From assembly GCA_044229975.1 (NCBI GenBank), contig JBGARZ010000009.1:219947-283946 (forward strand): DNA of 64,000 nucleotides, given 5' to 3'. The notes beneath the pieces were generated by a model that ran no database searches, had not been told where the DNA came from, and saw nothing but the letters and a program-made list of their open reading frames with translations. Positions within the stretch are counted from its first letter, which is position 1; the number at the start of each line of letters is the position of its first letter. The position numbers and the translations under genes are program-made. The stretch comes from Polyangiales bacterium. Lineage in GTDB: Bacteria; Myxococcota_A; Polyangia; Polyangiales; Ga0077539. Shown here one piece after another: positions 5,290-40,946 of this stretch.

Positions 5290-5413
5290 GGACGTCTCCT
5301 GCGCCGCGGCCGTGATGGGCGACGCGGAAGGAGCGGTAGCGGGGTCTGCCGCGCGGGGGAGGCGGCCCAACCGGGTGGGCCGCGGATCCCTCGGTGAATC
5401 AAGGCGATGGGCA

Positions 5414-6257: not shown

Positions 6258-6934
6258 AGAGCAGCGCATACAGTTGGAGCTGCTCTTCGTACTCGGGTCG
6301 CGGGTGACCCGTCTTGAAGTCCACCACGCAGGTACCTCCCGCGCCGAGCCGCAACATGTCGATCACGCCTCGCACCGGCAGTGTCGGGTGCGCCACCGAC
6401 CACTCCGTCAGCACGCCCTGCGCTCGCAGCCGCCGCAACGGGTCAACCTCTCCGCCGCCTCCCCCCTGGACCGAGACGATCGTCTCGGTCCCCTCGCGGT
6501 CGACGCTCGCGTACTCGCGCTGGAAGAGCGCGGCGACGCGGTTGTAAAGCGAGCGTGCGTCGTGGGGTAGCCGCAGCGCCGCGCGGCGCGGATGCCCGGC
6601 GAGCAGCGCGTTGGCCTCATCGATGCGCCGCTGGATCTCACCCATCACGTCGACCGCCCGCAGCGTGTGACGAAAGCCTTCGCTCCCCGGCGCCGGGAGC
6701 CCCGCGAAGGACAGCGCGCGGAACAGCCGGTCGAGCATCTCGTGCACGAGCGTTCCCTCTAGCGATGCCGCGTGCGGTCGCGTGGGGAAGCGCTCGAAGC
6801 CTGGCCACGACGAGCGCCGCAACTGCCACTGCCGCGGGCACTGCTCCAGTGTCCGCAGCGACGAGAAGCTCACGGTGCCGACGGTCGTCGCCCACGCCTC
6901 GGGCGCCGTCAGCCGGTGGAAGGGGTGGCTCACG
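6251..6934 (-). pseudogene. N-terminal fragment of a Cas4/RecB-like PD-(D/E)XK nuclease (motifs I-III and QxxxY), truncated by the transposon insertion
   Basis: LEQCPRQW (N-terminal Cys), GTLVHEMLD, GVIDML, VVDFKTG, QLQLYALL. GTG start overlaps the helicase stop (GTGA). The track ORF ends 6 codons into the transposon (..WWR|VTERVS*). Confidence 0.7.
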
Positions 6935-15831: not shown

Positions 15832-15834
15832 CGC

Positions 15835-22960: not shown

Positions 22961-23919
22961 CTTGCTCCTACACTCAAATAGACTTCCAGAACCAGAACCG
23001 ACACTGCAAGTCCAACTGCCGCGGCTAGCGCAACCACCTTCCGGGTTGTCATCGGTCGGACGCCCATCAGATGAGGAGCAGCCACTTCCATTGCCCCACG
23101 CAGACGGGCTATCTCACGAGCCTGAACGTCGTGATCAGATTCCCTCTGCGCAATCGATTGTCGCAGCAGGGCGAGCTCTTGCGAAGCGCGCCGAGTCTGA
23201 ATATCGTGATCAGACTCCTTTTGCGCAATCGATCGCCGCAGAAGAGCAAGCTCTTGCGAAGTGCGATCACGCTCTTCGTGCATGATCATCTGTTGCTCAG
23301 CGAGCAAGAGCATCTGGTCGACGGTTCCTTGCACCTGGAGCAGGCGATCTGCCTGACCCGACTGAGTCGTGATCGCACCACCGACGGTATGTCGAAACGC
23401 TTCAAGCTCGGCATGGATCACCTGCGTCATCGCCATACTACGGGCGTTCGCTGCAAGCGCGACCCGCACGAGATGCACGGTGACGGCCTGCATCTTGACG
23501 ACGTCTTGCATGGCCAGCGCGAGATCGCGAGTATTGTTAGCGAACATCCGTCCGAAGAATCCCCGTTCAGCGATCTCCCCCAATCGATCCTGCGTCGAGA
23601 GCACCAGCGACGACAGGTCGCGGAATGCAGTTCGGACCTCCTCGGCTCGCTGCATGATCTCGGAGCCGTGCGCAGCCTTCGCGAGGCTCGATGTCCATGG
23701 AACCATCGAGCCAGCGCCGTCCGAACCCGCCATGGCACCAAACCTCCCGGAACTCACATCAATCCGCGGTCGGACGCTGTCCGTTCCACTTCGGCCGCGG
23801 AGACTGCCAGCGAAGGGCCCTCGTGGGAAGGACCTTCTCGGACAGTCGAGCGTCAAAGGACGGACGACGATGTCGTTCCGTCGGTCGAACTCCCAGCGGA
23901 GCAGCTCGACCTCGCAGTT
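22957..23919 (-). CDS. Hypothetical coiled-coil protein with a C-terminal transmembrane helix; contains a 66-bp tandem repeat
   Basis: Two copies of SQELALLR.SIAQ.ESDHD.Q.R. C-terminus KVVALAAAVGLAVSVLVLEVYLSV. Lower GC than the surroundings. Start uncertain; I took the GTG after the upstream stop, and the track ORF extends to 24108. Confidence 0.4.
   Translation of the reverse strand, partial: NCEVELLRWEFDRRNDIVVRPLTLDCPRRSFPRGPFAGSLRGRSGTDSVRPRIDVSSGRFGAMAGSDGAGSMVPWTSSLAKAAHGSEIMQRAEEVRTAFRDLSSLVLSTQDRLGEIAERGFFGRMFANNTRDLALAMQDVVKMQAVTVHLVRVALAANARSMAMTQVIHAELEAFRHTVGGAITTQSGQADRLLQVQGTVDQMLLLAEQQMIMHEERDRTSQELALLRRSIAQKESDHDIQTRRASQELALLRQSIAQRESDHDVQAREIARLRGAMEVAAPHLMGVRPMTTRKVVALAAAVGLAVSVLVLEVYLSVGAR
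23110..23285. repeat. Intragenic tandem repeat, about 66 bp x 2.5
   Basis: cgtgatcagattccctctgcgcaatcgattgtcgcagcagggcgagctcttgcgaagcgcg and cgtgatcagactccttttgcgcaatcgatcgccgcagaagagcaagctcttgcgaagtgcg. Confidence 0.6.
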
Positions 23920-23947
23920 CACAGGGTGAATGGTCGCATGCGGACGC

Positions 23948-24478
23948 TCAACCCGCTCTTCGCCCGCCGTCGAGGCCGCCAGCACACTGCGCCTGCCAGC
24001 ACGCAACGGCCAGGGCGAGCGCCTCGTCGAGCGAGTCGCAGCGCCGCATGTGAGGATGGAGCTTCGCAGCGGCCCAGAGGTAGTTGCGGCCTTCGGTCGT
24101 GGGTGCAATCACGAAGAACGTCGGAATCCTCGCGCCGAGCAGGAAGCCGAACTCGCACCGGCTGGCGAGGGCCTTCGACGCCGCGTCCAGATGGAAGACC
24201 ACGCAGATGGCGTCGCGGAGGCCCGCGTGCTCTCGAGCGACGAGTGCGTCGACATCGGCCTGGCGAGCGTCCCCGTTGCTGGCATCGATGCCCGACCAGT
24301 CTGTGGCGGTCGGGTCGAAGCCGGGGACTCCCGCCTGATGGAGCGCCGCGAGCAATGGCAGACGCCACGGCGTCGATATGGAGCCATACAGTGCAACAAG
24401 ACCAGATCGTGATGCGACGGTGGACGAGGTTTCAGACTCAATCATTGGAGTCACGCGGGGAGGATGTTCGGCGAGCAC
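23948..24478 (-). CDS. Hypothetical protein (176 aa), possible Rossmann-like fold
   Basis: GC3-biased ORF directly downstream of the deaminase gene: LVALYGSISTPW...ICVVFHLD...FFVIAPTTEGRNYLW. No confident family. Confidence 0.4.
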   Translation of the reverse strand: MLAEHPPRVTPMIESETSSTVASRSGLVALYGSISTPWRLPLLAALHQAGVPGFDPTATDWSGIDASNGDARQADVDALVAREHAGLRDAICVVFHLDAASKALASRCEFGFLLGARIPTFFVIAPTTEGRNYLWAAAKLHPHMRRCDSLDEALALAVACWQAQCAGGLDGGRRAG

Positions 24479-27147: not shown

Positions 27148-30100
27148 TCAGGGCTTGGCGGGCCGCTTCCGGGCGCCTCCCTTTGCCCCGGAGTCTTTCC
27201 GCGTAGTCGATGCGCGGGCGGAACGCTGCCCAACCTTCGGTGCTGCTACCTCATCAGAAGGCGCCTCGATCCGATCGACACGGTCATACCAGGGATGTTC
27301 TGGAAAGCTCGAGCGCAGATGAGTGAATATCGGGCGGATGGCATCTGGCGAGTCGCAGAATCGAGCGGCCCACTCCACTCGGAGAGCCTTGAGAGTGTCC
27401 ACCGTCTCGCCGCCGACACCTAGAACCGTGGTGAGAACATGGCCTGCAACGGCTGGTGACACGCCAAGTTCAGGGGTCGCGAAGAGACCAAGTTCCCGTC
27501 GGAAGGTAGCGTAGTCACCGTGGTCCACCATTTCCGGCTTAGACTTCTTCCATGTGACGAGATCGCGAAGGAGGGTCTGCCAGTTCTGCCCGGTTGGCTC
27601 ACCCGTAAAATGCGCCGTCTGAACGCTCGACTCCCCCAGCAACCGGCGCGTGTTCTGGAGACAGCTGTAGAGCATGGCATCTACACGCCACTGAGGATCT
27701 GACACAGACCGAAGCTCACGCTGGTCGATCTGCCGAAGCGCCTCGTTCCAGGCATCCTCAATCTCAGAAACGTCTCCATACTGAAACCAATACAGAGCAG
27801 GCCAATAGAACTCCGGTCCATTGTCTCCGACCATGCATCGGACACCCTCCCACGGAAAGAAACCTACCCTCCTCGGGGTTGGGATCACAGAATTCGACGC
27901 GGCGTAGTCTGTCGCAATGGAATACACTGCATCGCAAGGCGACTGAAGCCGTAGGTCGTCCACGGTGACTCGAATTTCCCCGATCTCGTAGGTCCCAACG
28001 ACCAGATCTCCAGGAAGTGCAACCTGCCTCGTCGGGTGCTCGACCGTTTCGCGCGTGAACCGAAGGCCGTTCGTCTCGATACGCTGTTCGTCGCCCGGGA
28101 CCACTCGAACGGCCTTTCCAAAACGCTGCTGCTTCGTCGCGGAGATCGAAGCGTGCCACAATTCTGCAATGATCCGAGCTGTCGGAACGCTGCCGAACCG
28201 GTTTTCCTCAAGCACCCTCCTCATGACGTCAACGGCGTTGCGCGGCGCGCGAGAGAGCCTCCGCCGAACGAAACCGCTCAGGCGGTTACTCCCAACCAGA
28301 TTTCCCAGGCTTTGAATGAGGTCGGCGACATCCTTGGTCGGCGCCCGTCCCGCAACTCCGACCCCAGCAAACTTCAACCATGGATGATCCGTGGCGGCCA
28401 CCTCGTCGATCGCGTTCCGATAAATCGCGATCTGCGCCTCGTCCGTCGGTCGCCTCCGCAACGGAACCATTCGATGCGCAACGCCACGTCGAATCATCTC
28501 ATTTCGCGCGATCACCAACTCATCACGCAACGCAGACGCCCAAAGTCTTTCTCCAAACTCCTTCCTGAGCAGTTTCAGCCAGGACATAGCTGACTCGGGA
28601 GGAAGTCCACATTCAGGTGCTCCCAGCAGAGCCACCCGGGAGCGGGCCCAGACGGCGAAGGACTTCGCTCGTGGTGTTGTCGCCCGTTGCACTCCTAACC
28701 TGGCAACGCGAGGCGCCAACTCGCTCCACTTCGGCGCCTGAGTTTCCGACTCGTTCAAACGAATAGTTGGATCAGCCAGCTCGGCCTGATCGAGAACTAA
28801 TCCGACCAGAGTCCGGGCGAGGTGGTCAATGTGTCCTGCCCCCCAGGCACTACCAAGGCATGATTCACGCCACCTTCTTTCGACAACAATCGCATCCAAC
28901 GGAGACACCCAATCCGGGACGGGCCACGAAATAGGCAACACATCATCCCAAATGGCACCCTCAGCGGTGTCCCGACTCTCGGCAGCACGAGACAAGAACC
29001 GAACACTCGAAATGCAGTACCGATCGAAGACTGAAACACTTCCAAATTCATTGAACGGCGGAAAAGGACCGTCGGTAAGTGCGTCCTCGTGCATCATCGC
29101 CACAAGTGCGGACGTCGATGCGCCAGACAAAGACGCCGCTTCCTGCGGACGGTCAGCGCTCAGACCCGACCCACCCGGCGGCTCGATCCACCAGTGCGCC
29201 AGGGTTTGGAATGTGAGATCCGTTCCGGATCCGCTGGATGACGTATGGATGCCACGCCAATCGGCCCGAAGTCGAAACTCGCCACTTCTGACTCGAATTG
29301 ATCCGTCATCGGTATCAAAGAGAACATCCCGGCTTCTGCTCCGGAGGGCCAAGGACTTCGCATCATCTTCAATCGCGTGTCTCCAGAGATCGCGGAGAGC
29401 TGCGGCGCGGTTTCGATCGCCGACCTTCAGCGTCGCCGCCCGTCGGGTGCGAGCAGTCGTGGTCCCTTCGGCGGATCGCGTCGGCATGATAGCTTCGGAC
29501 CAACCGAACCAAACCGAGTCCGCCCGCAAGACGCCTTCTTGGAGCTGTCGGAGATTGCCGGGTAGCGCAAGGAGAAGCTCCGGAAGAGCCTTCATATATC
29601 CGCTCAGAGGCAAGCGCCCGTCGTGCGTCAGGTCGTCAATGCGACAAACCAGGGAGTTCATGGATACTCGTGACGTTCCCCTTCCACTCTCCGCCCCGCG
29701 AACATCTGAGTCAAAGTGCACCTCCCATCGATCACGCACGGCAATCTCGCTCAACGCGAATCGCTGGCTTTCAGGCACCGACTTGCTGAAAATCTGCCTG
29801 GAGATCTTCGCCGCCTTTTCGAGGCTTCCGTCTTCGAACGCAGGCGTCCTTCCAGAGTCGGAGGCCGCACTACCCAGCCGAATGTCGCGCAGAACCGAAT
29901 GCCGCAAAACGAGCTCAAATAACTCGCTGTCACCGGCAAGGACGATAGCAAACCGAGGATGCCACAACATCCTGATAATATCGATCAACTCCGGTACTCT
30001 CATGACATTCATATCACCATCATCAATGGGCAATACAAACAGCGGCGCTCGATCCCTCCAGTGCATTGCGCTGGCAAAGTCCTTTGCGAAGCAGTCCATC

Positions 30101-30831
30101 AGCTTTCCGAAGGATGATCTCACATCCATTCGGTCCGCCTCAACCTGCTGAAGCTCGTCCACGTAGCTCTCGAGATCGAGTCCGCCGCTCCGCCCCTTCA
30201 TGACGTCGTCCCACCCGATCACGACGGTGCTCATAAAGCCCCTCCAGGCATCGAAGGCCCCTGATCGAGTGCCCATCGTTTGCCAGGCAGTTCGCTCGAT
30301 GGTCCCCTCACCCGGGAGCCCGCGCTGAATCGCCTCGGCGATCGGGCGAAGACGGGTGGCGATGTGCGCCAGAAGATGCGTCGACTTCGGCAAGGGCTGC
30401 AGATCGAGAATCTCAAGCGGCACCACTTGAGAGCCCGTATAGACCTTCTGGAGGCTCTCCGCGACGAGCTTGCTGTCGAGCATCGGCCCCTGCACCTTAG
30501 GCTGAGGACGGCCTCGAATTGCGTTATTCCAGTGACCGAGAATCGATAACAGTACCGCGGTCTTTCCCGTACCCCGATCGCCGTCGATTAGGGCAACGCG
30601 ATTCGATCGCGCCTGATCAATGCGAGGAAGCACCAATTCGATCACGCAATCGCGCGACTCTCCTTGGATGTTCCCGGCGGTCGTCTCCTTCGCCATCGCG
30701 TCGACTAGATCAAGGATTCGCCGCGTCGCCCACCGCTGGTCCTCAGTCATCTCGTGCCAGTCCAGCGGCCGCGCCTCCGCCCTCGGCCCGCCGCTCACCC
30801 GATTCTCCCCGCCGCCGTTCGCGCTCGTCAT
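27148..30831 (-). CDS. rdrA: Large P-loop NTPase (KAP/AAA-like, 1227 aa), RADAR RdrA-like
   Basis: Walker A ALIDGDRGTGKTAVLLSIL, Walker-B-like FVLPIDDGDM (KAP-type hhhhDDxD). GC about 57%, versus about 70% around it. Immediately precedes and is coupled to the deaminase gene. Confidence 0.5.
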   Translation of the reverse strand: MTSANGGGENRVSGGPRAEARPLDWHEMTEDQRWATRRILDLVDAMAKETTAGNIQGESRDCVIELVLPRIDQARSNRVALIDGDRGTGKTAVLLSILGHWNNAIRGRPQPKVQGPMLDSKLVAESLQKVYTGSQVVPLEILDLQPLPKSTHLLAHIATRLRPIAEAIQRGLPGEGTIERTAWQTMGTRSGAFDAWRGFMSTVVIGWDDVMKGRSGGLDLESYVDELQQVEADRMDVRSSFGKLMDCFAKDFASAMHWRDRAPLFVLPIDDGDMNVMRVPELIDIIRMLWHPRFAIVLAGDSELFELVLRHSVLRDIRLGSAASDSGRTPAFEDGSLEKAAKISRQIFSKSVPESQRFALSEIAVRDRWEVHFDSDVRGAESGRGTSRVSMNSLVCRIDDLTHDGRLPLSGYMKALPELLLALPGNLRQLQEGVLRADSVWFGWSEAIMPTRSAEGTTTARTRRAATLKVGDRNRAAALRDLWRHAIEDDAKSLALRSRSRDVLFDTDDGSIRVRSGEFRLRADWRGIHTSSSGSGTDLTFQTLAHWWIEPPGGSGLSADRPQEAASLSGASTSALVAMMHEDALTDGPFPPFNEFGSVSVFDRYCISSVRFLSRAAESRDTAEGAIWDDVLPISWPVPDWVSPLDAIVVERRWRESCLGSAWGAGHIDHLARTLVGLVLDQAELADPTIRLNESETQAPKWSELAPRVARLGVQRATTPRAKSFAVWARSRVALLGAPECGLPPESAMSWLKLLRKEFGERLWASALRDELVIARNEMIRRGVAHRMVPLRRRPTDEAQIAIYRNAIDEVAATDHPWLKFAGVGVAGRAPTKDVADLIQSLGNLVGSNRLSGFVRRRLSRAPRNAVDVMRRVLEENRFGSVPTARIIAELWHASISATKQQRFGKAVRVVPGDEQRIETNGLRFTRETVEHPTRQVALPGDLVVGTYEIGEIRVTVDDLRLQSPCDAVYSIATDYAASNSVIPTPRRVGFFPWEGVRCMVGDNGPEFYWPALYWFQYGDVSEIEDAWNEALRQIDQRELRSVSDPQWRVDAMLYSCLQNTRRLLGESSVQTAHFTGEPTGQNWQTLLRDLVTWKKSKPEMVDHGDYATFRRELGLFATPELGVSPAVAGHVLTTVLGVGGETVDTLKALRVEWAARFCDSPDAIRPIFTHLRSSFPEHPWYDRVDRIEAPSDEVAAPKVGQRSARASTTRKDSGAKGGARKRPAKP

Positions 30832-30895: not shown

Positions 30896-33757
30896 TCACC
30901 CCATCCCCGGCAGTCCCCGTTGCGCCGGCGTCTCCGCCACGCTCGACGCCTCGCCCGCAGCCGCCGCCAGCTTCGCCACTTCGGGCCACGCGGTCACCAG
31001 CCCGTTGTAGGCCAGCGCCTCCGCCGCCCACTTCTTCCGTTCGCACAGGCTGTACAGCCGATAGGCCAGCTCGCGCGCCGCCTCGCCCTGCGCGCCTACC
31101 CGCGCCAGCAGCTCGCCCGCCGCCCGCTCGCCCTTCGCCTCCAGCGCGCGGATCAGGTGCTGCGCCACCTCCCACACCGTCCGCCGCGCGTCTGTCGCCG
31201 GGTCCCAGTCGGCCGACAGCTCCGCCCGCGTGAGCAGCGCCACCTTGCCGCGCGACGACCGCAGGACGCCCGCCTCCACCAGCCCCGCCACCGAGGTGTT
31301 CTTCGCCCGCGCCAGCGTGTCGGCACTCCCGAACTCCGCCTCGCCATACTGGTGCTGCTCGAACCACGCGAGGGCGCAGCGCGTGTCGGCGTCGAAGTCA
31401 CCCTCCTGCTCGGAGAGCACCTCGTCGAGCACCTGGTTGATGATCTGTAGCGCGGTGCGAACGCTCATCGCCGACCCGTCGGACTCCAGCACCTTCGCGT
31501 ACGACGAGAACACCGCCATCCCCGGTCCGATCGCCGCCTGCGCGAAGTCCACCGGGGCGATGTTGCCCTGCTGGAGCAGCTTGAGGTCCCGCGGGAGCGT
31601 GCGCTTCAGGGCGCGCAGGAAGTCCGATCGGGTCGCCGAGGGGGCGTCGTCCGCGCGCTTGCGGCAGACGAGTACGATCGAGGAGGCGAGGGCGTTGATG
31701 TGCTTCTTGATGTTACCGGTAAGCTCGGTCCTTACCGGCCAAGTCCCGTGCACGACGAATCCTGAACCCAATAGACTGGAAAGCATCGTCTCCCAACCAG
31801 ACGACGCAACCACGCCACCACCGGCATCGCCCTCGCCATCAGACTCAACCTGCTTGAATGCGTAGTAGACCGCGAGTGGATACCCTTCGACTTGACGCTC
31901 GTATATCCGACCGAATGCGATACGAATCTTCTCTTCGAAGAAGTCCTTCGCCCTCGCCAGATCGCCACCGTGTCGGTGCTGCGAAGCGACCAATTCCGAG
32001 TTCTTGGGGACGGTGATTGTGGCAAAAAGGTTCGGATACAACAGGCCCACCGAACGCCTGAGCCATACGTAGAAAAAATCCGAGAGGTCGGCGTAGCCGA
32101 TGTTGTCATAATACGGCGGATCGGTGCTCACCACGACCCCTTCGGGACCGCCCGGCTCACAGGCATCGGCTTGAAAGGCTCTCCCAAGGCATGTCAAATC
32201 GGCGGGAATTCTAAGCAGGTTCTGGTAGACACCGTCGACTTGGCTAATAAAATTTCCACTAGACTCGCTGAACGGATTCCCCTCGGCATAGTCCCACGTC
32301 ATCGTGAGCGCCTGCCTCGCAAACGTACTGGTGATCGTCTCGTACTTAGCTCCCGAGTGCCACGAGCACAGCATCGAAGAATAGTTCACCAGACGGTCAA
32401 CAGCGAATGACAAGAACACAGCAATCGCTTCCCCGTAACCAGCCTTGGCAGGATCACTCAACGGGCGGACGTCCTTCAATACCTCCGCTCGCACCTCTTC
32501 GACGAGACCGGAGAGGGTCGCGAGGGTGTTCAGTTGCCGAGGTGTGAAGGCGTCTGCCCATTCGTACATACCGTACATTGGCAACCGATCGACATCATGG
32601 CTCGGTGTCGTCACCCTCTCAGACGGACGCCAATGCGACTGTGCCGACGCTGCGATTGATGCGTGGCTATCGATGGACGACAGATATATCCTGGCCCTTT
32701 TGCCCTCGGCAACGATCGCGGTAGGAATCGATCCCATGCGTCCCGCCTGCGCCTCCTCGCGCACATAAGAGAGCTCAAATTCGTTCTTGCAGGCAAGGCA
32801 ATATGCGCTGCGAGCGCGAACGGTCCCCACTGACTCGCCAGCACCCTTTTCGACGCGAAATCCACCTCTACCTCCGAGCGCCTTGGGGTCGGCGACCAGG
32901 TGATATTCTTTGCCAGGCTTTGTCGCGAGGGATAGTGATCGAATCAGCGGCGCGGTGGCATTGCATGCGGGATTCGGACACTTCACCGTCCGAGCCCAAA
33001 GCCACGCGATGACCGTCGCCTCTCCGCCGCCGTGCTCCGTCGATAGTGTCACCTTCGGATACAGGTGTCCAATCCGCTTGAAGGCCTCATCCCTCATCCA
33101 CGTCCCGTAATACCGGACGTCCTCCGCGAGCCCCTCGGCGCCCTTCCACGTCCGCATCTTCTGGTTGCGCTGCGACTCCGGGTTCACCGGCGGCTGCCCC
33201 GCGAACTTCGGCGGAATCTCGATCAATGCCTTGTTGATCAGCACCGCCACCGGGTTGAGGTCCGTCGCGATGGCCCGCAGCCCGAGCCGCTGCGCCTCCA
33301 ATGGAATGGTCCCGCCCCCCGCGAAGGGGTCGTGCACCGGCGGCAGCGCCGTCGCGAGGTACTGATTGACCACCGCGGCCGCGGGCTTCTCCCCGAGGAT
33401 CACGTCGGCCCGCGGGTCGTCCCGGTGGAAGCGCGCGTGCGACTGCGCGATCTCCCGCCGCGCCTCGTTGATGATGGCCTCGTCGTGGCTCGCCTCCCAC
33501 GGCACCATCCGCTCGATCAGCCGGAACAGCCGCTCGCGCTCGCGCTTCTGCCCGGCCTCATCGCCCTGGAGTTCGGGCCAGGTGCTCGGGTCATCCACGA
33601 GTTGCGCGAACAGCACCGCGCGCGCCGCCGCCAGCGGTCGCCGCGCCCACCAGAGATGGAGCGTCGAGGGGTGCCCGTGGCGAATGGACTTCTCCCTCCC
33701 GGCGGCGGCGTTGATGGCTTCGAGCGGGAGCGCGACCTCGATGAGCTTCTTGGGCAT
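30896..33757 (-). CDS. DUF1156-type DNA methyltransferase (N6-adenine or N4-cytosine, DPPY class)
   Basis: N-terminus MPKKLIEVALPLEAINAAAGREKSIRHGHPSTLHLWWARRPLAAARAV (DUF1156 signature). Motif I DPFAGGGTIPLEA. Motif IV STDPPYYDNIGYADLSDFFYVWLRR. Confidence 0.75.
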   Translation of the reverse strand: MPKKLIEVALPLEAINAAAGREKSIRHGHPSTLHLWWARRPLAAARAVLFAQLVDDPSTWPELQGDEAGQKRERERLFRLIERMVPWEASHDEAIINEARREIAQSHARFHRDDPRADVILGEKPAAAVVNQYLATALPPVHDPFAGGGTIPLEAQRLGLRAIATDLNPVAVLINKALIEIPPKFAGQPPVNPESQRNQKMRTWKGAEGLAEDVRYYGTWMRDEAFKRIGHLYPKVTLSTEHGGGEATVIAWLWARTVKCPNPACNATAPLIRSLSLATKPGKEYHLVADPKALGGRGGFRVEKGAGESVGTVRARSAYCLACKNEFELSYVREEAQAGRMGSIPTAIVAEGKRARIYLSSIDSHASIAASAQSHWRPSERVTTPSHDVDRLPMYGMYEWADAFTPRQLNTLATLSGLVEEVRAEVLKDVRPLSDPAKAGYGEAIAVFLSFAVDRLVNYSSMLCSWHSGAKYETITSTFARQALTMTWDYAEGNPFSESSGNFISQVDGVYQNLLRIPADLTCLGRAFQADACEPGGPEGVVVSTDPPYYDNIGYADLSDFFYVWLRRSVGLLYPNLFATITVPKNSELVASQHRHGGDLARAKDFFEEKIRIAFGRIYERQVEGYPLAVYYAFKQVESDGEGDAGGGVVASSGWETMLSSLLGSGFVVHGTWPVRTELTGNIKKHINALASSIVLVCRKRADDAPSATRSDFLRALKRTLPRDLKLLQQGNIAPVDFAQAAIGPGMAVFSSYAKVLESDGSAMSVRTALQIINQVLDEVLSEQEGDFDADTRCALAWFEQHQYGEAEFGSADTLARAKNTSVAGLVEAGVLRSSRGKVALLTRAELSADWDPATDARRTVWEVAQHLIRALEAKGERAAGELLARVGAQGEAARELAYRLYSLCERKKWAAEALAYNGLVTAWPEVAKLAAAAGEASSVAETPAQRGLPGMG

Positions 33758-33977
33758 TGGGCGGCGCGCAGTCTGCGCCCCGACGCGTCCCGCCGGGAAG
33801 AGGGAACCACCCCGCGGCCTCGGCGCCGTTCCTCCATCGGGGGACTGCTTTGCCCCTGGTGGCGCTGACTATTCCTGACCGGTGGCTGCGGGCCGGTGCG
33901 CCACGAGTTCGGCACGAGCGCACCTGCATCAAGGAGCTTGCGTTCGCTCCCTTTTGTCCGCTCTCGGGGCGGTCCGC

Positions 33978-34502
33978 TCAGCTTGCGACACGCGGCGGAT
34001 CATGGCCCATGGTCACGCGGTAGAGGTCGCAGAGGTCCACGAGCTGGGCTGCGGCGATCGCGACCTGGCGCACATGGTACTGGGGTTCTCCCTCCCAGCC
34101 GTCCTTCCCTTCGTTGACGTCCACCCGGAAGTGCCGACGCGCCTCCTTCGCGCGCTCGGCGATCAGCCGTCCGAGACCCTCCATCGCGTCGAGCGCCACG
34201 CACGCCATTGTCTCGCCCTCGCCGTGCTCGCCCGGGTCGACCGCCATCGCGCCGCATTGCACGAAGACCACCTGGGCGAGCGCGAGCTCCGGGCACCAGA
34301 GATCGACCGACGCATCGAGGGCGTTCTGCGTGACCTCGGCCAGCACCGGGTGCGCCTCCAACCAGGTCAGCGGGCGGGTGAGAGCCGCACGATCCTTTCG
34401 GGCGCCACCAGCCTCCGTCGATGGAGGCACTTCAGCGGTGGACCTGGCGGACGAGCGGGCGGAACCCTCCGCCTCGGGGCGAGCCCTTCGCGGCGCGCTC
34501 AC
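33978..34502 (-). CDS. Hypothetical small protein (about 174 aa) of the operon
   Basis: GTG start overlaps the upstream stop (GTGA). GC3-biased. The track ORF's N-terminal 65 aa overlaps the upstream gene and is judged spurious. Confidence 0.4.
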   Translation of the reverse strand: MSAPRRARPEAEGSARSSARSTAEVPPSTEAGGARKDRAALTRPLTWLEAHPVLAEVTQNALDASVDLWCPELALAQVVFVQCGAMAVDPGEHGEGETMACVALDAMEGLGRLIAERAKEARRHFRVDVNEGKDGWEGEPQYHVRQVAIAAAQLVDLCDLYRVTMGHDPPRVAS

Positions 34503-35203
34503 GCGTCCGCCCCCGACCGGAACCACGTGCTTCCACGGTGGATCACGGGCACACCGCGTCTTGCCGCGAGCATCAGCCCATCGACTACCCGCCAGAGCCG
34601 CCGCAGGAGCAGGGCGATCTCCTGTTGGCGCTCGGACATCTCCATGATGTTCCCGGCGACCTTGCTCTCGTCCTCGGTTCCGATGGTCGCGTCGCACAGG
34701 CGGTCGACGATGCTGTCGATGTGGCGTCGCGCGGGCCTCGTGATTCGGCGGGCAACTCGCGCGAGCTGCTCGGCGTAGTCGAGCGGCCCGAGCCGGAAGA
34801 CCACACGCGTACCGAGATCGAACACCAGCAACTCTCGCGCGAGCTTCGGATCGCCGGCGTAGTAGGCGAAGAGCTTCAGGTCCCAGAGCAGCGAGGCCGG
34901 GACCTTCGTCCGGCGCGCTGGCGCGGCGGTCTTACTCGCGGGCGGCGGCGTGCGATGCGCTACGGCCGACGGCGATGTCGGTTGCAACTGGATGAGTTTC
35001 CCGCTGACGGGAGCGGCCTTCGTGGTCGTAGCCACGGGGACTCTCGGCTGTCCGATCGGCGGGCGAACGTCGCCCGCAGCGCCCAGTGGCGCGGCCTTGT
35101 TGTGCACGGTTCCCGTCTCCTGCGGCGCACGTTGGACAACCCCAGCGCCGTCGGAGCGACCCAACGATGGCTGCGTCGCGGATGTTCCACGGACAGTCGT
35201 CAC
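34499..35203 (-). CDS. Hypothetical protein (234 aa) between the SNF2 helicase and the methyltransferase; candidate DUF3780-type partner
   Basis: GC3-biased ORF 19 nt downstream of the SNF2 gene stop. DLKLFAYYAGDPKLARELLVFDLGTRVVF... No motif recognised; the DUF3780 idea comes only from known gene-neighbourhood context. Confidence 0.4.
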   Translation of the reverse strand: MTTVRGTSATQPSLGRSDGAGVVQRAPQETGTVHNKAAPLGAAGDVRPPIGQPRVPVATTTKAAPVSGKLIQLQPTSPSAVAHRTPPPASKTAAPARRTKVPASLLWDLKLFAYYAGDPKLARELLVFDLGTRVVFRLGPLDYAEQLARVARRITRPARRHIDSIVDRLCDATIGTEDESKVAGNIMEMSERQQEIALLLRRLWRVVDGLMLAARRGVPVIHRGSTWFRSGADA

Positions 35204-35222
35204 GAGCGGGTTCGGAGTGGGA

Positions 35223-38200
35223 TTATCCCAGCGCGACGACCACGACCGGCTCCTCGAAACCCGGCATCGCCCCAGCGAGTCCGTCGAGCACTACTGGAAT
35301 CCCGGTCGTCCCCTCGTCGTTGACCTCGACGACCACCAGCGCGACCCGCTCGGGCGCGTGCCGCAGCGCCATAGCCTCCGAGCGCCGCAGCGTCACCGAC
35401 GCGGCCCCCTCGGGCACCCCGCGCACGACCCAGAACCGCAGCGCCCCCGTCGCCGGTTCGCGCGCCTCGAGGTCCCACCCGGCCCGCTGCGCCCGCACGT
35501 CGCGCAGGTCGCGGCCGCGCAGCGCCTCGGCCCGCATCACCGCCGCGATCGCCACCTCGTCGCGCCCCCCGTCGAGCGCCAACCCACCTACGAGCCCGGC
35601 AGGGACCACCGGCACCACCGCGACGATATCCACGTCGCCCTCCGCCACGGCGCGCAACCCGGCGAGCTCGGCGCGGCGCTCGAACATCCGACCGCGCAGG
35701 GTCTTCTCCAGCTCGGACTGCTGCTGGGCCTTCTTGGCACCGTGGTGCCCACGCGCCTGCGCCTCGACCTTCAGCCGGTGGGCCTGCTGCGTCTCGGCCG
35801 AGAGCCGCGCCATCACCTCGCGCTCGATGACGTCGATCGCCTTCTCATGGCGCGTACGCACCGCCCGACGCCACGGCACGAGCAGCGCTTCATCGATCGC
35901 GGCGCGCAGGGAATCCGGCCGCGCCGGAAGCGCGGGGTCCATCGCCGCGAGGCACGCGCGCTCCTCGTCGGTGGTCGATCGAAGGTCGAGATGGGCGGGT
36001 CCCGCGAGGGGACGGACGGAGCCGTCGGCGCGGACGGCGACGAGCCACGCAGCTTCGTCGAGGCGCGCCCCTTCGCCGTGGGTGAGCGCCTGCGAGACGG
36101 CGACGAGCCACCAGGGCTCGCTCCCCCCGTCGAAGGGATCGACGTACGCCGCGGGCGTGTGCAGCGCGTCGCGGGCCACAGCGAGGGCGAGCGCGCGGGC
36201 CCACGGGTGTGCGGCGGTCAGGCGCACGACCTCGTCGCCAGCAAGGGGATCGAAGCCGATGGGAGGCGGCCGTTGCGGGAGGGTGGCGTCGTGCGCGCGC
36301 CACGCGGGCGGGGTGAAGTTGACGGCGTAGCGCCCTTCACTGCGGGGGAAGGCGCGGCCCTGTATCGACCCGAGCGCGGCGACGAACCAGGGCTCCAGGC
36401 AGGCGCGCCCGAGCTGCTGGCCGGCGGCGCGGTCCATGTCGTCGCGGAGGGCGCGTAGCTGGCGGGCAGCGGCCTCGCGCGCGGCGGTCTCATCGACGCG
36501 TCGCGAGAACTCGTGCTGGCGGGTGACGGCCTCATCCACCTGGCGGCCGACGGCGTCGCCGGCGCGGGCGGCCTCGTGGCGTCCGCCGCGCACCGCGTCG
36601 AGGAGGAAGTCCCGCAGCGGGCGCTCGCTGAAGGCCGCGCCGAGGACGTCGAAGACCTGTCCGCGGAGGGACTTCGACTCTTCTTCGAGGCGACGGCAGA
36701 GGGCCTGGAAGACCTCGGTCTCACGGGTGCCGTCGGCGACGAGGTTCCAGAGCTGGCAGGTCTCGGTCTGGCCGATGCGGTGCACGCGGCCGAAGCGCTG
36801 CTCGATGCGCGCGGGGCTCCAGGGGATGTCCCAATTGAGCACGAGCGAGGCGCACTGGAGGTTGATGCCCTCGCCCGCGGCGTCGGTCGCCACGAGGAAC
36901 TCCGTGCCCTCCTCGTCGGCGAAGGCACGCTGCGCGGCGAGGCGCTGGGCGCGGTCCATGGAGCCGTCGATGGTGACGACGCACTCGGCGCGGCCGCGCA
37001 GGTTGGCCAGGAAGTCGGCGACGTAGGTGAGGGTGTCGCGGTGCTCGGTGAAGACCACGAGCTTCCGCCGCCGGCCGAGGCGGTCGACCATGGCTGCGGA
37101 GGTGAGCAGCTCGGCGACGCGCTCGCGTTTGCAGTCCACCTTGGCCTGGAGCAGCGCGCGGCTCTCGACCTCGAGCTCGGCGAGGCGATCGACCTCGTCG
37201 GCGAGCTCGTCGATCGAGCGCGCCGCGGTGGCGCCTTCGGCGAGGGCGCTCTCTTCGGCTTCGGTCTCGGCGCCCGGGAGGTCGAGGGCGGACTCGAGCT
37301 CGTCGTCGGAGAGGCTCTCCTCCTCGGCGCGGAACGAGCGGGCGCGCAGGGCGGCGAGGCGCGCGGCGAGCTTCGCGCGGCGCGAGGAGAGCGAGCGGTG
37401 GATGGCGCTCGGGCTCGACGCGAGGCGGCGCTGGAGCACGGTGAGGGCGAAGCCGACGGTGCGTCCGCGGCCCTCGGTGGCCTCGGCACGGTCGAACTCG
37501 GTGCGCACATACTGGGTGACGGACTCGTAGAGGGACTTCTCCCGGGGTGAGAGCGCGAAGTTGACGGTGACCGCGCGGCGCGGGGGGAAGAGGGCCGAGC
37601 CGTCGAAGCGGACGAGGTCTTCCTTGAGGCGGCGGTGGATGAGGTCGTCGATGCGCGGGGTGTGGACGCCGTCGCGGAACTTGCCCGCGAAGCGGTCGCC
37701 GTCGACAAGCTGGAGGAAGGCCTGGAAGCGCTCCTCGCTGCCGTCGTGGGGAGTGGCACTCATCAGGAGGACGTCGCGAGCCTCGGCGGCGACGCGGCGC
37801 GCGAAGCTGAAGCGCTGGGTGGGGTCGAGGCGCTGGCCGTTCCAGCCGGTGGAGAGGCGGTGGGCCTCGTCGAAGACAGCGAGGTCCCAGTGCACGGCGG
37901 CGACGCGGGCGACGAAGGCCGGGTCGCGGGCGACCTGGTCGAGGCGCACGACGGCGAAGGGATGCTCGACGAACCACTCGTCGGCGCGGACGAGGTCGGT
38001 GCGCGTGGGGAGGTCGAAGCGGAGGTCGAAGCGGGTCCAGAGCTCGTCGCGCCACTGGTCAACGAGCGAGCCGGGCGCAACGACGACGCAGTTGCGGAGG
38101 AGACCACGGGCGCGCATCTCGGTGATGAGCAGGCCGGCCATGATGGTCTTGCCGGCGCCGGGGTCGTCGGCGAGCACGAAGCGCAGCGGGCGTTGTACGA

Positions 38201-38345
38201 GGAGGGTCTCGTAGACGGCGGAGACCTGGTGGGGCAGCGGATCGATGCGCGCGACGTGGACGGCGAGGCGCGGGTCGAAGAGCGCCGCGTGGAGGACGCG
38301 CCAGGACTCGAGGGCCAGTCGCACGGGGTCGGGGGTGGTTCCCAT
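35223..38345 (-). CDS. SNF2-family helicase (DrmD / MADS-helicase-like) with a long C-terminal extension
   Basis: LADDPGAGKT, DEAHRL, MSATPHDGS, helicase-C motifs FLVATDAAGEGINLQ and QRFGRVHRIGQ. 1040 aa. Confidence 0.8.
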   Translation of the reverse strand: MGTTPDPVRLALESWRVLHAALFDPRLAVHVARIDPLPHQVSAVYETLLVQRPLRFVLADDPGAGKTIMAGLLITEMRARGLLRNCVVVAPGSLVDQWRDELWTRFDLRFDLPTRTDLVRADEWFVEHPFAVVRLDQVARDPAFVARVAAVHWDLAVFDEAHRLSTGWNGQRLDPTQRFSFARRVAAEARDVLLMSATPHDGSEERFQAFLQLVDGDRFAGKFRDGVHTPRIDDLIHRRLKEDLVRFDGSALFPPRRAVTVNFALSPREKSLYESVTQYVRTEFDRAEATEGRGRTVGFALTVLQRRLASSPSAIHRSLSSRRAKLAARLAALRARSFRAEEESLSDDELESALDLPGAETEAEESALAEGATAARSIDELADEVDRLAELEVESRALLQAKVDCKRERVAELLTSAAMVDRLGRRRKLVVFTEHRDTLTYVADFLANLRGRAECVVTIDGSMDRAQRLAAQRAFADEEGTEFLVATDAAGEGINLQCASLVLNWDIPWSPARIEQRFGRVHRIGQTETCQLWNLVADGTRETEVFQALCRRLEEESKSLRGQVFDVLGAAFSERPLRDFLLDAVRGGRHEAARAGDAVGRQVDEAVTRQHEFSRRVDETAAREAAARQLRALRDDMDRAAGQQLGRACLEPWFVAALGSIQGRAFPRSEGRYAVNFTPPAWRAHDATLPQRPPPIGFDPLAGDEVVRLTAAHPWARALALAVARDALHTPAAYVDPFDGGSEPWWLVAVSQALTHGEGARLDEAAWLVAVRADGSVRPLAGPAHLDLRSTTDEERACLAAMDPALPARPDSLRAAIDEALLVPWRRAVRTRHEKAIDVIEREVMARLSAETQQAHRLKVEAQARGHHGAKKAQQQSELEKTLRGRMFERRAELAGLRAVAEGDVDIVAVVPVVPAGLVGGLALDGGRDEVAIAAVMRAEALRGRDLRDVRAQRAGWDLEAREPATGALRFWVVRGVPEGAASVTLRRSEAMALRHAPERVALVVVEVNDEGTTGIPVVLDGLAGAMPGFEEPVVVVALG

Positions 38346-38372: not shown

Positions 38373-40946
38373 CTAGACCACGATGGCCGCGAGAGTGGTC
38401 TCGACCTCGTCGAGGCCGGGCCGCGCTCCGGGCTCGTGGGTGGTGCATGCGCGCGAGAGCTTCACCCACGACGGCAGCATCACCTTGTCGACGTCGGTCT
38501 GGCCGGTGAGCAGATAGGCGAGCAGCTTGCCGAAGGCGTAGACGTCCGCGCTCGGGTGGGCCTCGGCGCCGTCGACCTGCTCGGGGGGCGCGAAGCCCGG
38601 CGTGCCGAGTCCTGCAAAGGTGCGGTGCTGCGTGACGAGGCGGCGGAGGTTCTTGGCGATGCCGAAGTCTCCGAGCTTCCAGCGGCCGCCTACGCAGAGC
38701 ACGTTCTCTGGCTTGAGGTCTCGGTGCACGACGTCGAGGGAGTGCAGCTCACGCAGGGCGGCGAGCACGGTGAGCGCGATGGCCTTCGACTCGGCAGGCG
38801 TGAGCGGCTCGGGCTTCGCGCGGACGAAGGCGTCGAGGGTGCCGCCATCGGCGAACTCGGTGAGCAGAGCCACGTGGGTGTCGTTGTGCTCGATGCCGAG
38901 CACCCGCAGCACGCCGTCGGAGTCGGCGCGGTGCAGCCGCGTGTAAACGTCGATCTCCCGGCGCAGCGCGTCGCCCGCGAGCCCGTCGACCGGGACCTTC
39001 TTCATGAACGCGATGGTGCCGTCGCGCCCGCGCACCTTGAAACCATCGGACATGCCGCCGCCGGGCATTCGCGCGAGCACCTCGTACTGATCGAAGAGCG
39101 TCTCGGTGGGGCGGCGGTCTTCGCTCACCACCGTCGGCAGCGGGCCGCCGAAGGTGCGACGGGTCTCCTCGGAGTCGCGGCCGTTGATGGGCTTGCCGGT
39201 CAGGCGCTCGACGCCGTCGAGGAGGCGTCGGGCGCGCTCGCGGTAGAAGGTCGCGAAGTCGTCCTGCCGCAGCGAGCGGGCGTCCATGCAGTGGGTGCGG
39301 AGGAGCTCGTCTAGGTCATTGGCCTTCACTCCGCCGCGCTCGACGCGCGCGAGGTACACCGATGGGTTGACCAGGCCGAGCCGCTTCCAGGTGCGCGAGG
39401 TGCGCGGCGTTTTGTTGAGGATCGACTTCTGGATCGACGGCGGAAACTGCCCCGTCTTCCCCGTGAACCACGAGTCGGGGAAGGCGTGGTGGAGGTCGAC
39501 GTCCTGGGCGAAGTAGGTCGACCGCTCGATCTCGTCGCCCGACAGAAGGTCGCGGGCGCCACGTTGCAGCAGCAGCGCCATGAAACCCTTGTAGGCGGCG
39601 CTGAGTCGCATCGAGAGGGTGGCGAGTCGCGACGGTGAGAAGTTGCAGTCGCGCACGGTGGATGGCTCAGGGCCGCCGTCGATCCAGAGCAGCACCTCGG
39701 AGATGTCCTTGCCGAAGCGCGTCTCGGTGGTTCCGCCGTAGAGCTCGCCGAAGACGCCGCACCAGTACCAGCGGAGGAGCTTCTCCCGCGCGGTGGGCTC
39801 GTCGACGCGCGGACCGAGCGCCGCCGCGATGGCCGCGAAGGGGATGAGCTGGCTCTTGTAGGGGAGGTACCGGGTGTCGAAGATGCGCTCGCGTTCGAGG
39901 AGCCGCGACGCGGTGACGAAGCCCTCGTACACGGCATCGGCGTGGACGTTGTACTCCTCCAGCGGGAGGTTGAGCATGTCGACGCGCCGGCAGCCGACGT
40001 GGATCCGGCGGTCGTTGGCGCCGCGCTTCCACGACGAGAGCAGGGAGATGGCCTGGAGGAAATCGGTGGCGATGATCTCACCGAGGATGCCGTGAGCGGC
40101 GAGCGCGCGCTGGCGCTTGTCCCACTCGACGCGCATGTCGACCGAGCGCGCGGCGTAGGTGGCGGTGACGAGTTCGAAGACGTCGAGGGGCTTGCCGCCG
40201 GTGTTCACCTTCTCGAAGACCATGCAGATGGCCTGTCGCGAGGTGGTGCGCCCGAGCTCGATGGAGGGCACGCGGTACTGCTGAATCGACTGGATCACCT
40301 CGCGCTCAAAGCGGTTCCAGAGTTTCGCGATCTCGGCCGCGTGCTGGTGAAAGTCGCTCAGCCCGTAGCGCCAGTCCTGACTCGCGGCGACGTCGAAGAC
40401 GGTGGCGACGGGAATGCAGAGGTTCTCGTAACACTTCTCCGGGGTCGACAGGTCGAGGTCGATGGTCCGATTGAAATTGCTCCGTACCTGCAAGGAAGGG
40501 TCGAGCGCGAGCACGGCTTCCTTCCGCTCGATGCCCTCGTCGAGGCACTTGCGGATGTCGAAGAAGTACACCCGCTTGATGGCGTTGCCCTTGGTGTCGA
40601 GAGTGGGCACCGGCACGCCCGCCCGGAAGGTCGAATAGAGGGCGGTGAGGCGCTGCTGCCCATCCAGGATGAGGCGCCGCTCCAGCCCCGGGTTTTCGGG
40701 CGCGCCCTCGACGGAGCGGGCCTTGAACTGCACGTCGCCCCCGCACTCGAGGAGCAACACCGCGCCGACAGGCCAGGCCTGCGACACCGACGCGACGAGG
40801 TCACTGATGCGATCGTCGTCCCAGACCCACGAGCGCTGGAAGTCGGGAAGCTGGAGCACCCCGCGGTGGATCTCTTCGAGGAGATCGCGGAGGGGCGTCT
40901 CGGCCGGACGAAAGGTCATCTGTGCGGGCATCGGGGCGCATGACAC
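38373..40946 (-). CDS. GmrSD-like type IV restriction enzyme (DUF262 ParB-like plus DUF1524 His-Me nuclease) fused to a C-terminal Ser/Thr protein kinase
   Basis: DUF262: LPDFQRSWVWDDDRISDL...LILDGQQRLTAL. DUF1524: DLHHAFPDSWF. Kinase: AFMK, HRDLKPENV, DFG, GTPGFAPPE. Confidence 0.7.
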   Translation of the reverse strand: MSCAPMPAQMTFRPAETPLRDLLEEIHRGVLQLPDFQRSWVWDDDRISDLVASVSQAWPVGAVLLLECGGDVQFKARSVEGAPENPGLERRLILDGQQRLTALYSTFRAGVPVPTLDTKGNAIKRVYFFDIRKCLDEGIERKEAVLALDPSLQVRSNFNRTIDLDLSTPEKCYENLCIPVATVFDVAASQDWRYGLSDFHQHAAEIAKLWNRFEREVIQSIQQYRVPSIELGRTTSRQAICMVFEKVNTGGKPLDVFELVTATYAARSVDMRVEWDKRQRALAAHGILGEIIATDFLQAISLLSSWKRGANDRRIHVGCRRVDMLNLPLEEYNVHADAVYEGFVTASRLLERERIFDTRYLPYKSQLIPFAAIAAALGPRVDEPTAREKLLRWYWCGVFGELYGGTTETRFGKDISEVLLWIDGGPEPSTVRDCNFSPSRLATLSMRLSAAYKGFMALLLQRGARDLLSGDEIERSTYFAQDVDLHHAFPDSWFTGKTGQFPPSIQKSILNKTPRTSRTWKRLGLVNPSVYLARVERGGVKANDLDELLRTHCMDARSLRQDDFATFYRERARRLLDGVERLTGKPINGRDSEETRRTFGGPLPTVVSEDRRPTETLFDQYEVLARMPGGGMSDGFKVRGRDGTIAFMKKVPVDGLAGDALRREIDVYTRLHRADSDGVLRVLGIEHNDTHVALLTEFADGGTLDAFVRAKPEPLTPAESKAIALTVLAALRELHSLDVVHRDLKPENVLCVGGRWKLGDFGIAKNLRRLVTQHRTFAGLGTPGFAPPEQVDGAEAHPSADVYAFGKLLAYLLTGQTDVDKVMLPSWVKLSRACTTHEPGARPGLDEVETTLAAIVV

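Follow-up and report, generated by a model that had tools for sequence, protein, structure and literature searches.

The window analyzed here, a 64,000-nucleotide stretch of Polyangiales DNA (contig JBGARZ010000009.1), encodes on its minus strand what we regard, with high confidence from its sequence, as an Hma system with embedded cargo genes, in which two small open reading frames (ORFs) are passengers and HmaA, the helicase, is of a rare short type whose nuclease motifs are altered. The name Hma, for Helicase, Methylase, ATPase, goes back to Payne et al. in 2021 (PMC8565338), and the system was re-described in 2026 by Rakesh and Krishnan as the Type-1 DUF499-centred BREX-related (BR) system (PMC12839542). 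The locus is largely explained by such published systems and their embedded genes, and we do not regard it as a new class. Its particular form, in which a short HmaA is linked to a kinase, is possibly an undescribed variant of Hma; no description of such a variant with degenerate nuclease motifs was found in the literature searched.

An earlier reading of the letters alone (hereafter, the sequence-only reading) had proposed a restriction-like system of methyltransferase and helicase. This was supported, with Hma as the family: the PADLOC profiles of HmaA (residues 8-1015 against profile positions 77-1139 of 1176), HmaB (residues 2-938) and HmaC all gave near full-length matches. In this window, where GC content is about 70% and spurious ORFs are plentiful, coding frames were picked by the GC content at the three codon positions (GC1/2/3). 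Taken by themselves, the 70% GC and a codon bias like that of Streptomyces would suggest an actinobacterium. From the gene of a GmrSD-like/kinase fusion through HmaC, an unbroken, co-directional minus-strand chain spans positions 18055-40946, with the following main features:

38373-40946, minus strand: fusion of a GmrSD-like module (DUF262 and HNH-like) with a Ser/Thr kinase, 857 aa (Pfam GmrSD_N 9.1e-28, Pkinase 3.4e-31)
35223-38345, minus strand: HmaA SNF2 helicase, short form, 1040 aa (PADLOC HmaA 1.1e-255)
34499-35203, minus strand: small ORF1, at most 234 aa, read as strain-specific cargo (conserved helical domain in codons 95-234, 34502-34921)
33978-34346, minus strand: small ORF2, most likely 122 aa, an orphan (GC periodicity and GGAGG 5' of its GTG)
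30896-33757, minus strand: HmaB, predicted DUF1156 N6-adenine DNA methyltransferase, 953 aa (PADLOC HmaB E=0, Pfam DUF1156 4.9e-30)
31697-32983, minus strand: apparently swapped central module of HmaB, about residues 230-700, with target-recognition insert (comparison with the sister locus L082, below)
18055-21399, minus strand: HmaC DUF499 AAA+ ATPase with N-terminal HEPN-like domain, 1114 aa (PADLOC HmaC 4.6e-299)

For comparison, 80 loci encoding HmaB relatives (the best 56% identical) were taken from GTDB species representatives of many phyla, including archaea. HmaA was present in 68 of them and HmaC in 69. The genes followed one another as A-B-C on the same strand in 54 of the 80, most of the others being without one gene in the sequence examined. 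With published Hma/Type-1 BR systems the window shares the same three core genes, matched by near full-length profiles and in the same order and orientation, the HEPN-like domain at the HmaC N-terminus, the DUF1156 N-terminus of HmaB with a target-recognition insert between motifs I and IV, and embedded genes at both junctions, as in 63-67% of Hma loci. It differs from them in a helicase that is without the TUDOR-like N-terminus and has VxR for ExK, in the loss of the HmaC HEPN motif, and in the GmrSD-kinase fusion found upstream in most of the window's small clade. Further, HmaC lies 9.5 kb downstream of HmaB with four genes embedded between them, whereas the published embedded-gene survey allowed three.

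The 953-aa ORF that the sequence-only reading had called a DUF1156 DPPY methyltransferase is indeed one. DUF1156 is N-terminal, motif I (DPFAGGG) lies at residues 143-149 and motif IV (DPPY) at residue 546; both DPPY and DPF[AC]GGG were present in 80 of 80 relatives as well as in the window's HmaB (METHYLTRANSFERASE). Since neither the DPPY nor the S-adenosylmethionine-binding motif is missing, HmaB is not inactive by alignment, and the methyltransferase looks active. HmaC matched the Pfam families DUF499 (5.1e-28) and, N-terminally, HEPN_Swt1 (1.9e-6), and its Walker A motif, GGGKT, was intact in an alignment with 66 relatives. At residues ~60-100, it reads RARISE where at least 90% of these relatives have the HEPN motif RNxWAH, with a deletion of about 23 aa upstream of it; in this protein, the proposed HEPN "suicide" RNase of the HmaC family is probably inactive.

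Comparison with MANTIS, MADS and DISARM

As the family, the sequence-only reading had named DUF1156/DUF499/DUF3780/helicase systems and MADS, and neither assignment held. The sister Type-2 BR system is Gao_RL, now MANTIS, composed of the DUF499 protein MtsA, the small MtsB, the DUF1156 protein MtsC and MtsD, a helicase with phospholipase D (PLD) domain (10.64898/2026.09.23.753747). DUF3780 is specific to Type-2 BR systems, whose helicase carries the PLD nuclease, and a standalone DUF3780 gene occurs in 98% of Type-2 taxa (PMC12839542). The window resembles MANTIS in its homologous DUF499 ATPase and DUF1156 methyltransferase and in its superfamily 2 (SF2) helicase-type effector, and MANTIS is the best mechanistic model available for it. 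Unlike MANTIS, the window contains neither a DUF3780 gene nor a PLD/HKD nuclease on the helicase, and its small ORFs are unrelated to MtsB. Its proteins also scored 7-9 times below the cut-offs of the MANTIS-type NCBIfam families: 162 bits for DUF499_antiphage (cut-off 1200), 111 bits for DUF1156_antiphage (cut-off 1000) and 146.5 bits for phospholipD_antiphage (cut-off 1100), which matched HmaA over the helicase core only.

As modelled by its authors, a MADS locus must carry mad6, mad7 and mad8, alongside a methylase that is type-I-like and a specificity subunit (10.1101/2023.03.30.534895). MADS was rejected, as the MAD6 match reached 78 bits vs. 460 and covered the kinase domain only, no MAD7 was found, and the methyltransferase is of the DUF1156 type; a weak mad8 match (1.4e-6) fell on a UvrD-like helicase about 20 kb away. 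DISARM class 1 was rejected as well. HmaA shares its post-helicase region with DrmD of that system and with BrxHII of BREX type 3 (NCBIfam DrmD, 328 bits), but this score is below the cut-off of 610, the partners are Hma-type, and there is no DrmA, DrmB, DrmC or PglZ gene. The sole DrmA match fell on the helicase itself, and DrmB, DrmC and DrmMI were unmatched among the 20 window proteins scanned.

The HmaA-HmaB junction and its small ORFs

Both Hma junctions are known insertion hotspots, embedded genes having been reported in 62.7% and 66.5% of Hma loci (10.1101/2024.01.29.577857; PMC11232893), and both hold cargo in the window. Among the related loci, 49 of 57 HmaA-HmaB junctions held inserts of varied gene content, 455 bp to 8 kb in size, and the other 8 were empty (≤51 bp), while the HmaB-HmaC junction measured at least ~490 bp in 35 of 68. 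In the window, the HmaA-HmaB junction is a 1465-bp gap with two minus-strand ORFs. Scans of this gap for repeats, promoters and terminators gave nothing above chance and no att-like repeats, and a megablast of the locus against plasmids returned only short helicase or methyltransferase fragments.

The most informative comparison was with L082, the sister locus (strain assembly GCA_044228995.1), which encodes an HmaA of 96% identity. At the DNA level, identity was 95.8% over window positions 41000-35227, ended no more than 4 nt from the HmaA stop codon and resumed at 33827, 70 nt before the HmaB start. Instead of the small ORFs, the 4.7-kb HmaA-HmaB gap of L082 contains three opposite-strand genes, including one for a CHAT protease; in L083, from a Polyangiales metagenome-assembled genome (MAG), and in the contig of HmaA relative P0007, unrelated larger genes lie between HmaA and HmaB. 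The window's cargo thus resembles genes recognized elsewhere through "guilt by embedding" in lying between hma genes, co-directional with them, and in being swapped between near-identical loci, and the small ORFs themselves show all three properties, L082 having different genes in their place. Unlike the embedded genes described so far, the A-B cargo matches no PADLOC candidate family.

HmaB itself is a mosaic when compared with L082. Residues 1-230 and 700-953 are 96-100% identical, whereas the central ~470 aa fall to 24-64% identity in 50-column windows, mostly 25-45%. This central module (window 31697-32983 against L082 18682-19956) holds the target-recognition insert and the surroundings of motif IV, and its GC3 is lower. 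The pattern looks like an exchange of the centre as a specificity module by recombination, which should alter the recognized sequence and predicts differing methylation motifs in two loci that are otherwise ~96% identical. Together, the cassette exchange at the HmaA-HmaB junction and the HmaB module swap make this pair a clean natural case.

The sequence-only reading had described two small coupled ORFs of 234 and 174 aa with a GTGA overlap. Both ORFs exist and the GTGA is present at 34499-34502, but neither the 174-aa model nor the coupling stood up to codon analysis. The first 52 codons of the 174-aa ORF2 model show no periodicity (GC1/2/3 = 0.71/0.75/0.75), in contrast to codons 53-174 (0.80/0.43/0.87); the GTG at 34346 is preceded at 7 nt by a GGAGG, and ORF2 is 122 aa long in the public annotation (P0002). 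The GTGA coupling is therefore probably a longest-ORF artefact, and the 122-aa ORF2 leaves a gap of ~150 nt after the ORF1 stop, with no overlap. In ORF1, for which the public gene call is 202 aa with a start at 35107 (P0001), coding signal and homology are limited to codons 95-234 (GC1/2/3 = 0.71/0.48/0.86).

No match to ORF1 or ORF2 was found in Pfam, even at E≤10, in NCBIfam or in PADLOC, and a word-seeded search of 5.8 billion proteins returned self matches only. A PHROGs scan with the ORF1 domain family alone gave no match, nor did tblastn of ORF1 against INPHARED phages and PLSDB plasmids or of ORF2 against INPHARED phages. By contrast, an exhaustive HMMER scan of ORF1 codons 95-234 against 1.84 billion representatives yielded 8 remote relatives of 116-221 aa, of which 7 (116-149 aa) align convincingly at 28-43% identity (alignment A2). 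These seven begin MKPRTKVPASLLRDLK, exactly at the start of the window's conserved domain, and the family alignment shows a conserved RTKVPASLLxDLK start and a WRVVxGLM motif. The low-complexity N-terminal extension of ~94 aa in ORF1 is not present in the relatives, and ORF1 has no conserved start codon where they start.

The genomic contexts of four ORF1 relatives were looked up, and all were mobile-element contexts of 71-75% GC. In one, small overlapping early-type genes lie by Xre-type regulators, RNase H, DUF3854 and a tyrosine integrase; a second has a similar small-gene run with a DEAD helicase and DUF3854; the other two comprise small overlapping ORFs on very short contigs and a P2-like tail-gene cluster (prophage). 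On our reading of these sequences, ORF1 was captured from a mobile element and its domain belongs to a rare family of actinobacterial mobile elements and prophages. No counterpart of ORF2 was detected in the loci of the ORF1 relatives, even at E≤5.

Two of these loci, L164 (3048-12265) and L165 (7215-16420), define a type of small integrative element in actinobacteria whose layout is conserved: a regulator of the Xre type comes with some ten short, overlapping ORFs, either RNase H or a DEAD helicase, DUF3854 and a protein of ~800 aa. The L164 element also has a tyrosine integrase, and almost none of the genes in either element falls in a Pfam family.

Structure prediction added little. Single-sequence AlphaFold2 gave an unusable model of the ORF1 domain (pLDDT 46) and a four-helix bundle for ORF2 (pLDDT 63), for which Foldseek against the PDB retrieved only generic helical bundles (best E=0.9). 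The ORF1 family profile found only spurious designed-ankyrin matches among PDB sequences, with no significant stretch. Two other candidate explanations were tried and rejected: that ORF1 and ORF2 are halves of one frameshifted gene, as neither half has relatives among longer proteins and the ORF1 relatives end where ORF1 ends, and that ORF2 is the gene downstream of the ORF1 relatives, which gave no match.

The sequence-only reading had offered the two proteins as DUF3780-type specificity or adaptor subunits, i.e., MtsB-like, translationally coupled and needed by the system. Their position between helicase and methyltransferase on the same strand agrees with this, as does the stimulation of methylation by the small MANTIS protein MtsB (10.64898/2026.09.23.753747), and the TUDOR-like domain, for which DUF3780 is a proposed substitute in Type-2 systems (PMC12839542), is absent from the window HmaA. 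Conservation next to DUF1156 methyltransferases is nevertheless what the small ORFs do not show: they were found in none of the 80 related loci, ORF1 is also absent from L082, and the pair is replaced in that 96%-identical locus. Neither DUF3780 nor any other family matched them at E≤10, and other TUDOR-less loci of the short clade (L082, L083 and the P0007 contig) are without them. Further, DUF3780 has an alpha+beta fold with a four-stranded sheet (PMC12839542), whereas the low-confidence ORF models are mostly or wholly helical, and the GTGA-coupled 174-aa model is without coding signal over its first 52 codons. We therefore consider an adaptor role highly improbable.

We read the ORF1/ORF2 pair instead as strain-specific cargo rather than as subunits, and two versions of this differ in whether the pair is functional. 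It is a real possibility, if short of probable, that the ORFs form an autonomous embedded module that works independently of the Hma core, be it a new mini defence gene, a gene derived from superinfection exclusion or anti-defence, or a regulator taken up from a mobile element. The majority of Hma-embedded genes have a link to defence or are candidates for one, and defence was seen with 7 of the 9 candidates tested (10.1101/2024.01.29.577857). Both ORFs are co-directional with the operon and show strong coding periodicity in their cores, and ORF1 has relatives that lie in runs of early genes in integrative elements and within a P2-like prophage. On the other hand, the pair contains no known domain, ORF2 is a complete orphan, the structure predictions are poor, the ~94-aa extension of ORF1 is odd, and ORF1 and ORF2 were not found together elsewhere.

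Possible, though we doubt it, is that both are non-functional, either left over from an old insertion or arisen by chance in DNA of 70% GC. High-GC DNA gives many long spurious ORFs, and both are orphans or near-orphans with N-terminal stretches without coding signal, ORF1 having no conserved start at the start of its relatives. This is opposed by the in-frame composition (GC2 ~0.45 and GC3 ~0.87 over 140 and 122 codons), by the 28-43% identity of the ORF1 domain to seven independent relatives and by the good ribosome-binding site before ORF2. Passenger status is itself deduced from non-conservation, which weighs against our reading in so far as a strain-specific regulatory role of the small ORFs is possible. 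As a weaker side possibility, ORF1 might act as a built-in regulator or decoy; a small mobile-element protein family inside a defence operon is a candidate regulator, decoy or counter-defence protein.

The short HmaA and the upstream GmrSD-kinase fusion

The sequence-only reading had noted a SNF2 helicase gene at 35223-38345 with a long stretch beyond the helicase-C motifs and had called that extension unusually long. The first observation was correct: Pfam placed SNF2-rel_dom, ResIII and Helicase_C in the 1040-aa HmaA, the Helicase_C match ended at about residue 525, and ~515 aa follow it. The extension is not unusual, as the PADLOC HmaA profile covers the tail, and DrmD profiles align with HmaA out to about residue 880 (PADLOC). 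BR helicases consist of an N-terminal TUDOR domain, a Swi2/Snf2 core, an inactive restriction endonuclease (REase) domain and an alpha+beta domain (PMC12839542), and the ~500 aa past the helicase core are, by alignment, the family-standard C-terminal module of HmaA. The protein is in fact shorter than the family norm, since HmaA ORFs from 51 related loci are typically ~1190 aa long, i.e., ~150 aa longer than that of the window, and only 9 codons are open upstream of its ATG, where relatives carry ~76-77 further residues. What is absent from the alignment at this end is the TUDOR-like N-terminus.

At the other end, an active C-terminal PD-(D/E)xK nuclease (NOV_C/DUF3883, PF13020) is present on the helicase in 79% of Type-1 taxa (PMC12839542). 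In the window HmaA, PF13020 gave no match in Pfam; the corresponding domain still aligns, with ExK changed to VxR. It reads GWDLE...RFWVVRG where at least 90% of sequences follow the consensus GYDIES...RFIEVKG, so that the Asp is kept and E and K are replaced by V and R, while the helicase motifs are invariant in the same type of comparison (alignment A1). The two altered residues correspond to E1104 and K1106 of Halomonas HmaA, in which the quadruple mutant D1084/E1104/K1106/E1121 lost nicking and phage defence (PMC11232893).

The same features recur in relatives. Among the matches listed, the five closest HmaA proteins (P0003-P0007; 985-1044 aa; 96, 62, 61, 61 and 52% identical; one from a Polyangiales MAG) are all without PF13020, the TUDOR-like N-terminus and ExK, whereas the remaining listed matches are ~40% identical, mostly 1100-1215 aa long and carry PF13020. 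The short, VxR-bearing HmaA is hence a small clade and not an accident as judged from these sequences, and its members would no longer carry a competent PD-(D/E)xK site. As VxR is found even in clade members with no more than 52-62% identity, the Polyangiales MAG protein among them, its retention appears to be long-term. Ratios of nonsynonymous to synonymous substitution rates (dN/dS) between the window and L082 were 0.15 for HmaA overall and 0.18 over its nuclease-like tail, 0.065 for the GmrSD-kinase and 0.03-0.09 for the conserved HmaB ends; values in this range (0.03-0.18) indicate that all three are maintained by selection.

The GmrSD-kinase gene stops 27 nt before the HmaA ATG. Residues 1-603 form a GmrSD-like module with DFQR and DGQQR (DUF262) and DxHH/NK (HNH-like) motifs, which belongs to a widespread ~595-aa family mostly found outside Hma, and the remainder is a complete Ser/Thr kinase domain in which the motifs HRD, DFG and APE are all present. 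The same fusion lies directly upstream of a short HmaA in L082, L083 and the P0007 contig. Within the short clade, it was found in 4 of 6 members; one, on a truncated contig, was indeterminate, and one (P0005) was without it. In the papers searched, a fusion of GmrSD with a kinase was nowhere described. GmrSD-like genes as such are among the commonest Hma-associated cargo (10.1101/2024.01.29.577857; PMC11232893, on the Halomonas hma insertion hotspot).

The 857-aa protein resembles BrxU/GmrSD type IV enzymes in its DUF262 motifs and its DxHH/NK HNH-like motif and differs from them in that two conserved Asn of this motif (at least 90% conserved) are substituted, N to K and N to W, both in the window and in L082. 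BrxU is a BREX accessory, PglW of BREX type 2 combines a nuclease with a kinase, and MAD6 of MADS bears a kinase; the window's fusion of a GmrSD-like module with a complete Ser/Thr kinase domain parallels BrxU in its accessory role and PglW in its pairing of nuclease and kinase. GmrSD-kinase fusions seem to be accessories of methylation-based defence systems generally, perhaps recurrent ones, and the linkage seen here bears on how kinases enter methylation-based immunity.

Two further loci have fusions of this kind at 46-48% identity, one beside a BREX PglX gene (L084 9959-12574) and one in a DISARM-like locus with DrmD and DrmMI (L106 8099-11054).

Type-1 BR loci without a helicase-nuclease fusion have other nucleases nearby, HNH types included (PMC12839542). 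In this setting, the GmrSD-kinase fusion is the best candidate to supply the effector or signalling function missing from the short HmaA. In MANTIS, the AAA+ ATPase loads the methyltransferase, hemimethylation follows, and then restriction by the helicase-nuclease (10.64898/2026.09.23.753747). By analogy, the DUF499 AAA+ ATPase of the window would load the DUF1156 methyltransferase on short asymmetric sites (PMC12839542), self DNA would then be adenine-hemimethylated, and unmodified sites would license a helicase-linked effector; our own suggestion is that, in the short-HmaA clade, the GmrSD-kinase may stand in as the effector or signalling arm.

Taken further, a short HmaA with the GmrSD-kinase upstream, here along with a HEPN-dead HmaC, might constitute an undescribed Hma/BR subtype in which a kinase-coupled effector replaces the helicase-borne nuclease. 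We put this forward tentatively and consider it unlikely as it stands. If it were true, sensing of unmodified DNA by HmaB/HmaC/HmaA would trigger phosphorylation signalling, abortive infection or a kinase-regulated type IV-like nuclease rather than direct restriction. Several points weigh against our reading of the locus as a whole. The linkage to the GmrSD-kinase comes from few independent loci, and the clade member P0005 is without the fusion. Conserved positions are substituted in the HmaA ExK, in the HmaC HEPN RNxWAH and, at two Asn, in the GmrSD HNH-like motif; because all three carry motif substitutions, no clear effector candidate stands out among the nuclease-type modules. Moreover, the one Hma component tested so far is the HmaA of Halomonas, on its own, and the nuclease residues lost here were needed for defence in that test (PMC11232893); the variant may therefore work unlike both models.

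The same substitutions could be taken to mean that the whole Hma locus is decaying and inactive: ExK became VxR in HmaA, RNxWAH became RARISE in HmaC with a ~23-aa deletion, two Asn of the HNH-like motif in the GmrSD-like module became Lys and Trp, and Halomonas HmaA needed its nuclease residues for defence (PMC11232893). However, all ORFs of 850-1100 aa are intact, as are the helicase, methyltransferase, ATPase and kinase motifs. The dN/dS values of 0.03-0.18, including 0.18 over the nuclease-like domain, and the presence of VxR in clade members 52-62% identical, which implies long-term retention, likewise speak against decay, and we consider it quite improbable. A conserved clade without the nuclease residues essential in the sole tested HmaA, and still under selection, bears on the question of which effector Hma/BR systems use.

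Cargo in the HmaB-HmaC junction and neighbouring genes

The sequence-only reading had also listed extra defence genes beside the core, RADAR and DruE-like, and these are present, as a distant RdrA/RdrB-like pair and a DruE1 match (PADLOC E=0). The former belongs to the four genes embedded between HmaB and HmaC:

27148-30831, minus strand: distant RdrA-like P-loop ATPase, 1227 aa, embedded cargo (PADLOC RdrA 6.1e-9)
24529-27144, minus strand: distant RdrB-like protein with deaminase-like region, 871 aa, embedded cargo (PADLOC RdrB 1.5e-26)
21509-24108, minus strand: two overlapping cargo genes, 383 aa (22957-24108) and 483 aa (21509-22960), the only match being a weak one of the latter to PADLOC PDC-M09B (7.3e-14)

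The "RADAR" pair is very divergent by sequence, with partial matches only. The RdrA-like protein scored 34 bits against the NCBIfam RdrA cut-off of 600 and has an unusually low GC3 of 0.65, and the RdrB-like protein scored 111 bits against a cut-off of 800, with weak adenosine-deaminase matches. The 383-aa and 483-aa genes likewise have a GC3 (0.65-0.69) well below that of HmaA and HmaC. In L082, an RdrA-like N-terminus also starts downstream of HmaB, after two extra genes.

A segment of ~20 kb upstream of the operon, window 41001-61397, is absent from L082, where position 7283 corresponds to window 61398 and position 7346 to window 41000. It encodes an HNH-like protein of 384 aa, a fusion of a GT4 glycosyltransferase with a radical-SAM/SPASM domain (855 aa), and AAA_33/WG-repeat and sulfatase-like proteins, and it is a second variable island beside the Hma locus.

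Directly downstream of HmaC, a Druantia-like cluster occupies 6930-18039 on the minus strand, with DruE1 (2095 aa), a UvrD/GajB-like helicase of 830 aa, a weakly DruD-like protein of 334 aa and a 734-aa protein without assignment; no clear DruA, DruB or DruC was found within it. Defence genes are thereby co-directional over ~34 kb, from the GmrSD-kinase through DruE. At the far end of this defence island lies a gene for an rve-family integrase/transposase with HTH_32 (519 aa, 3877-5436, minus strand), which suggests mobility of the island or of its flank.

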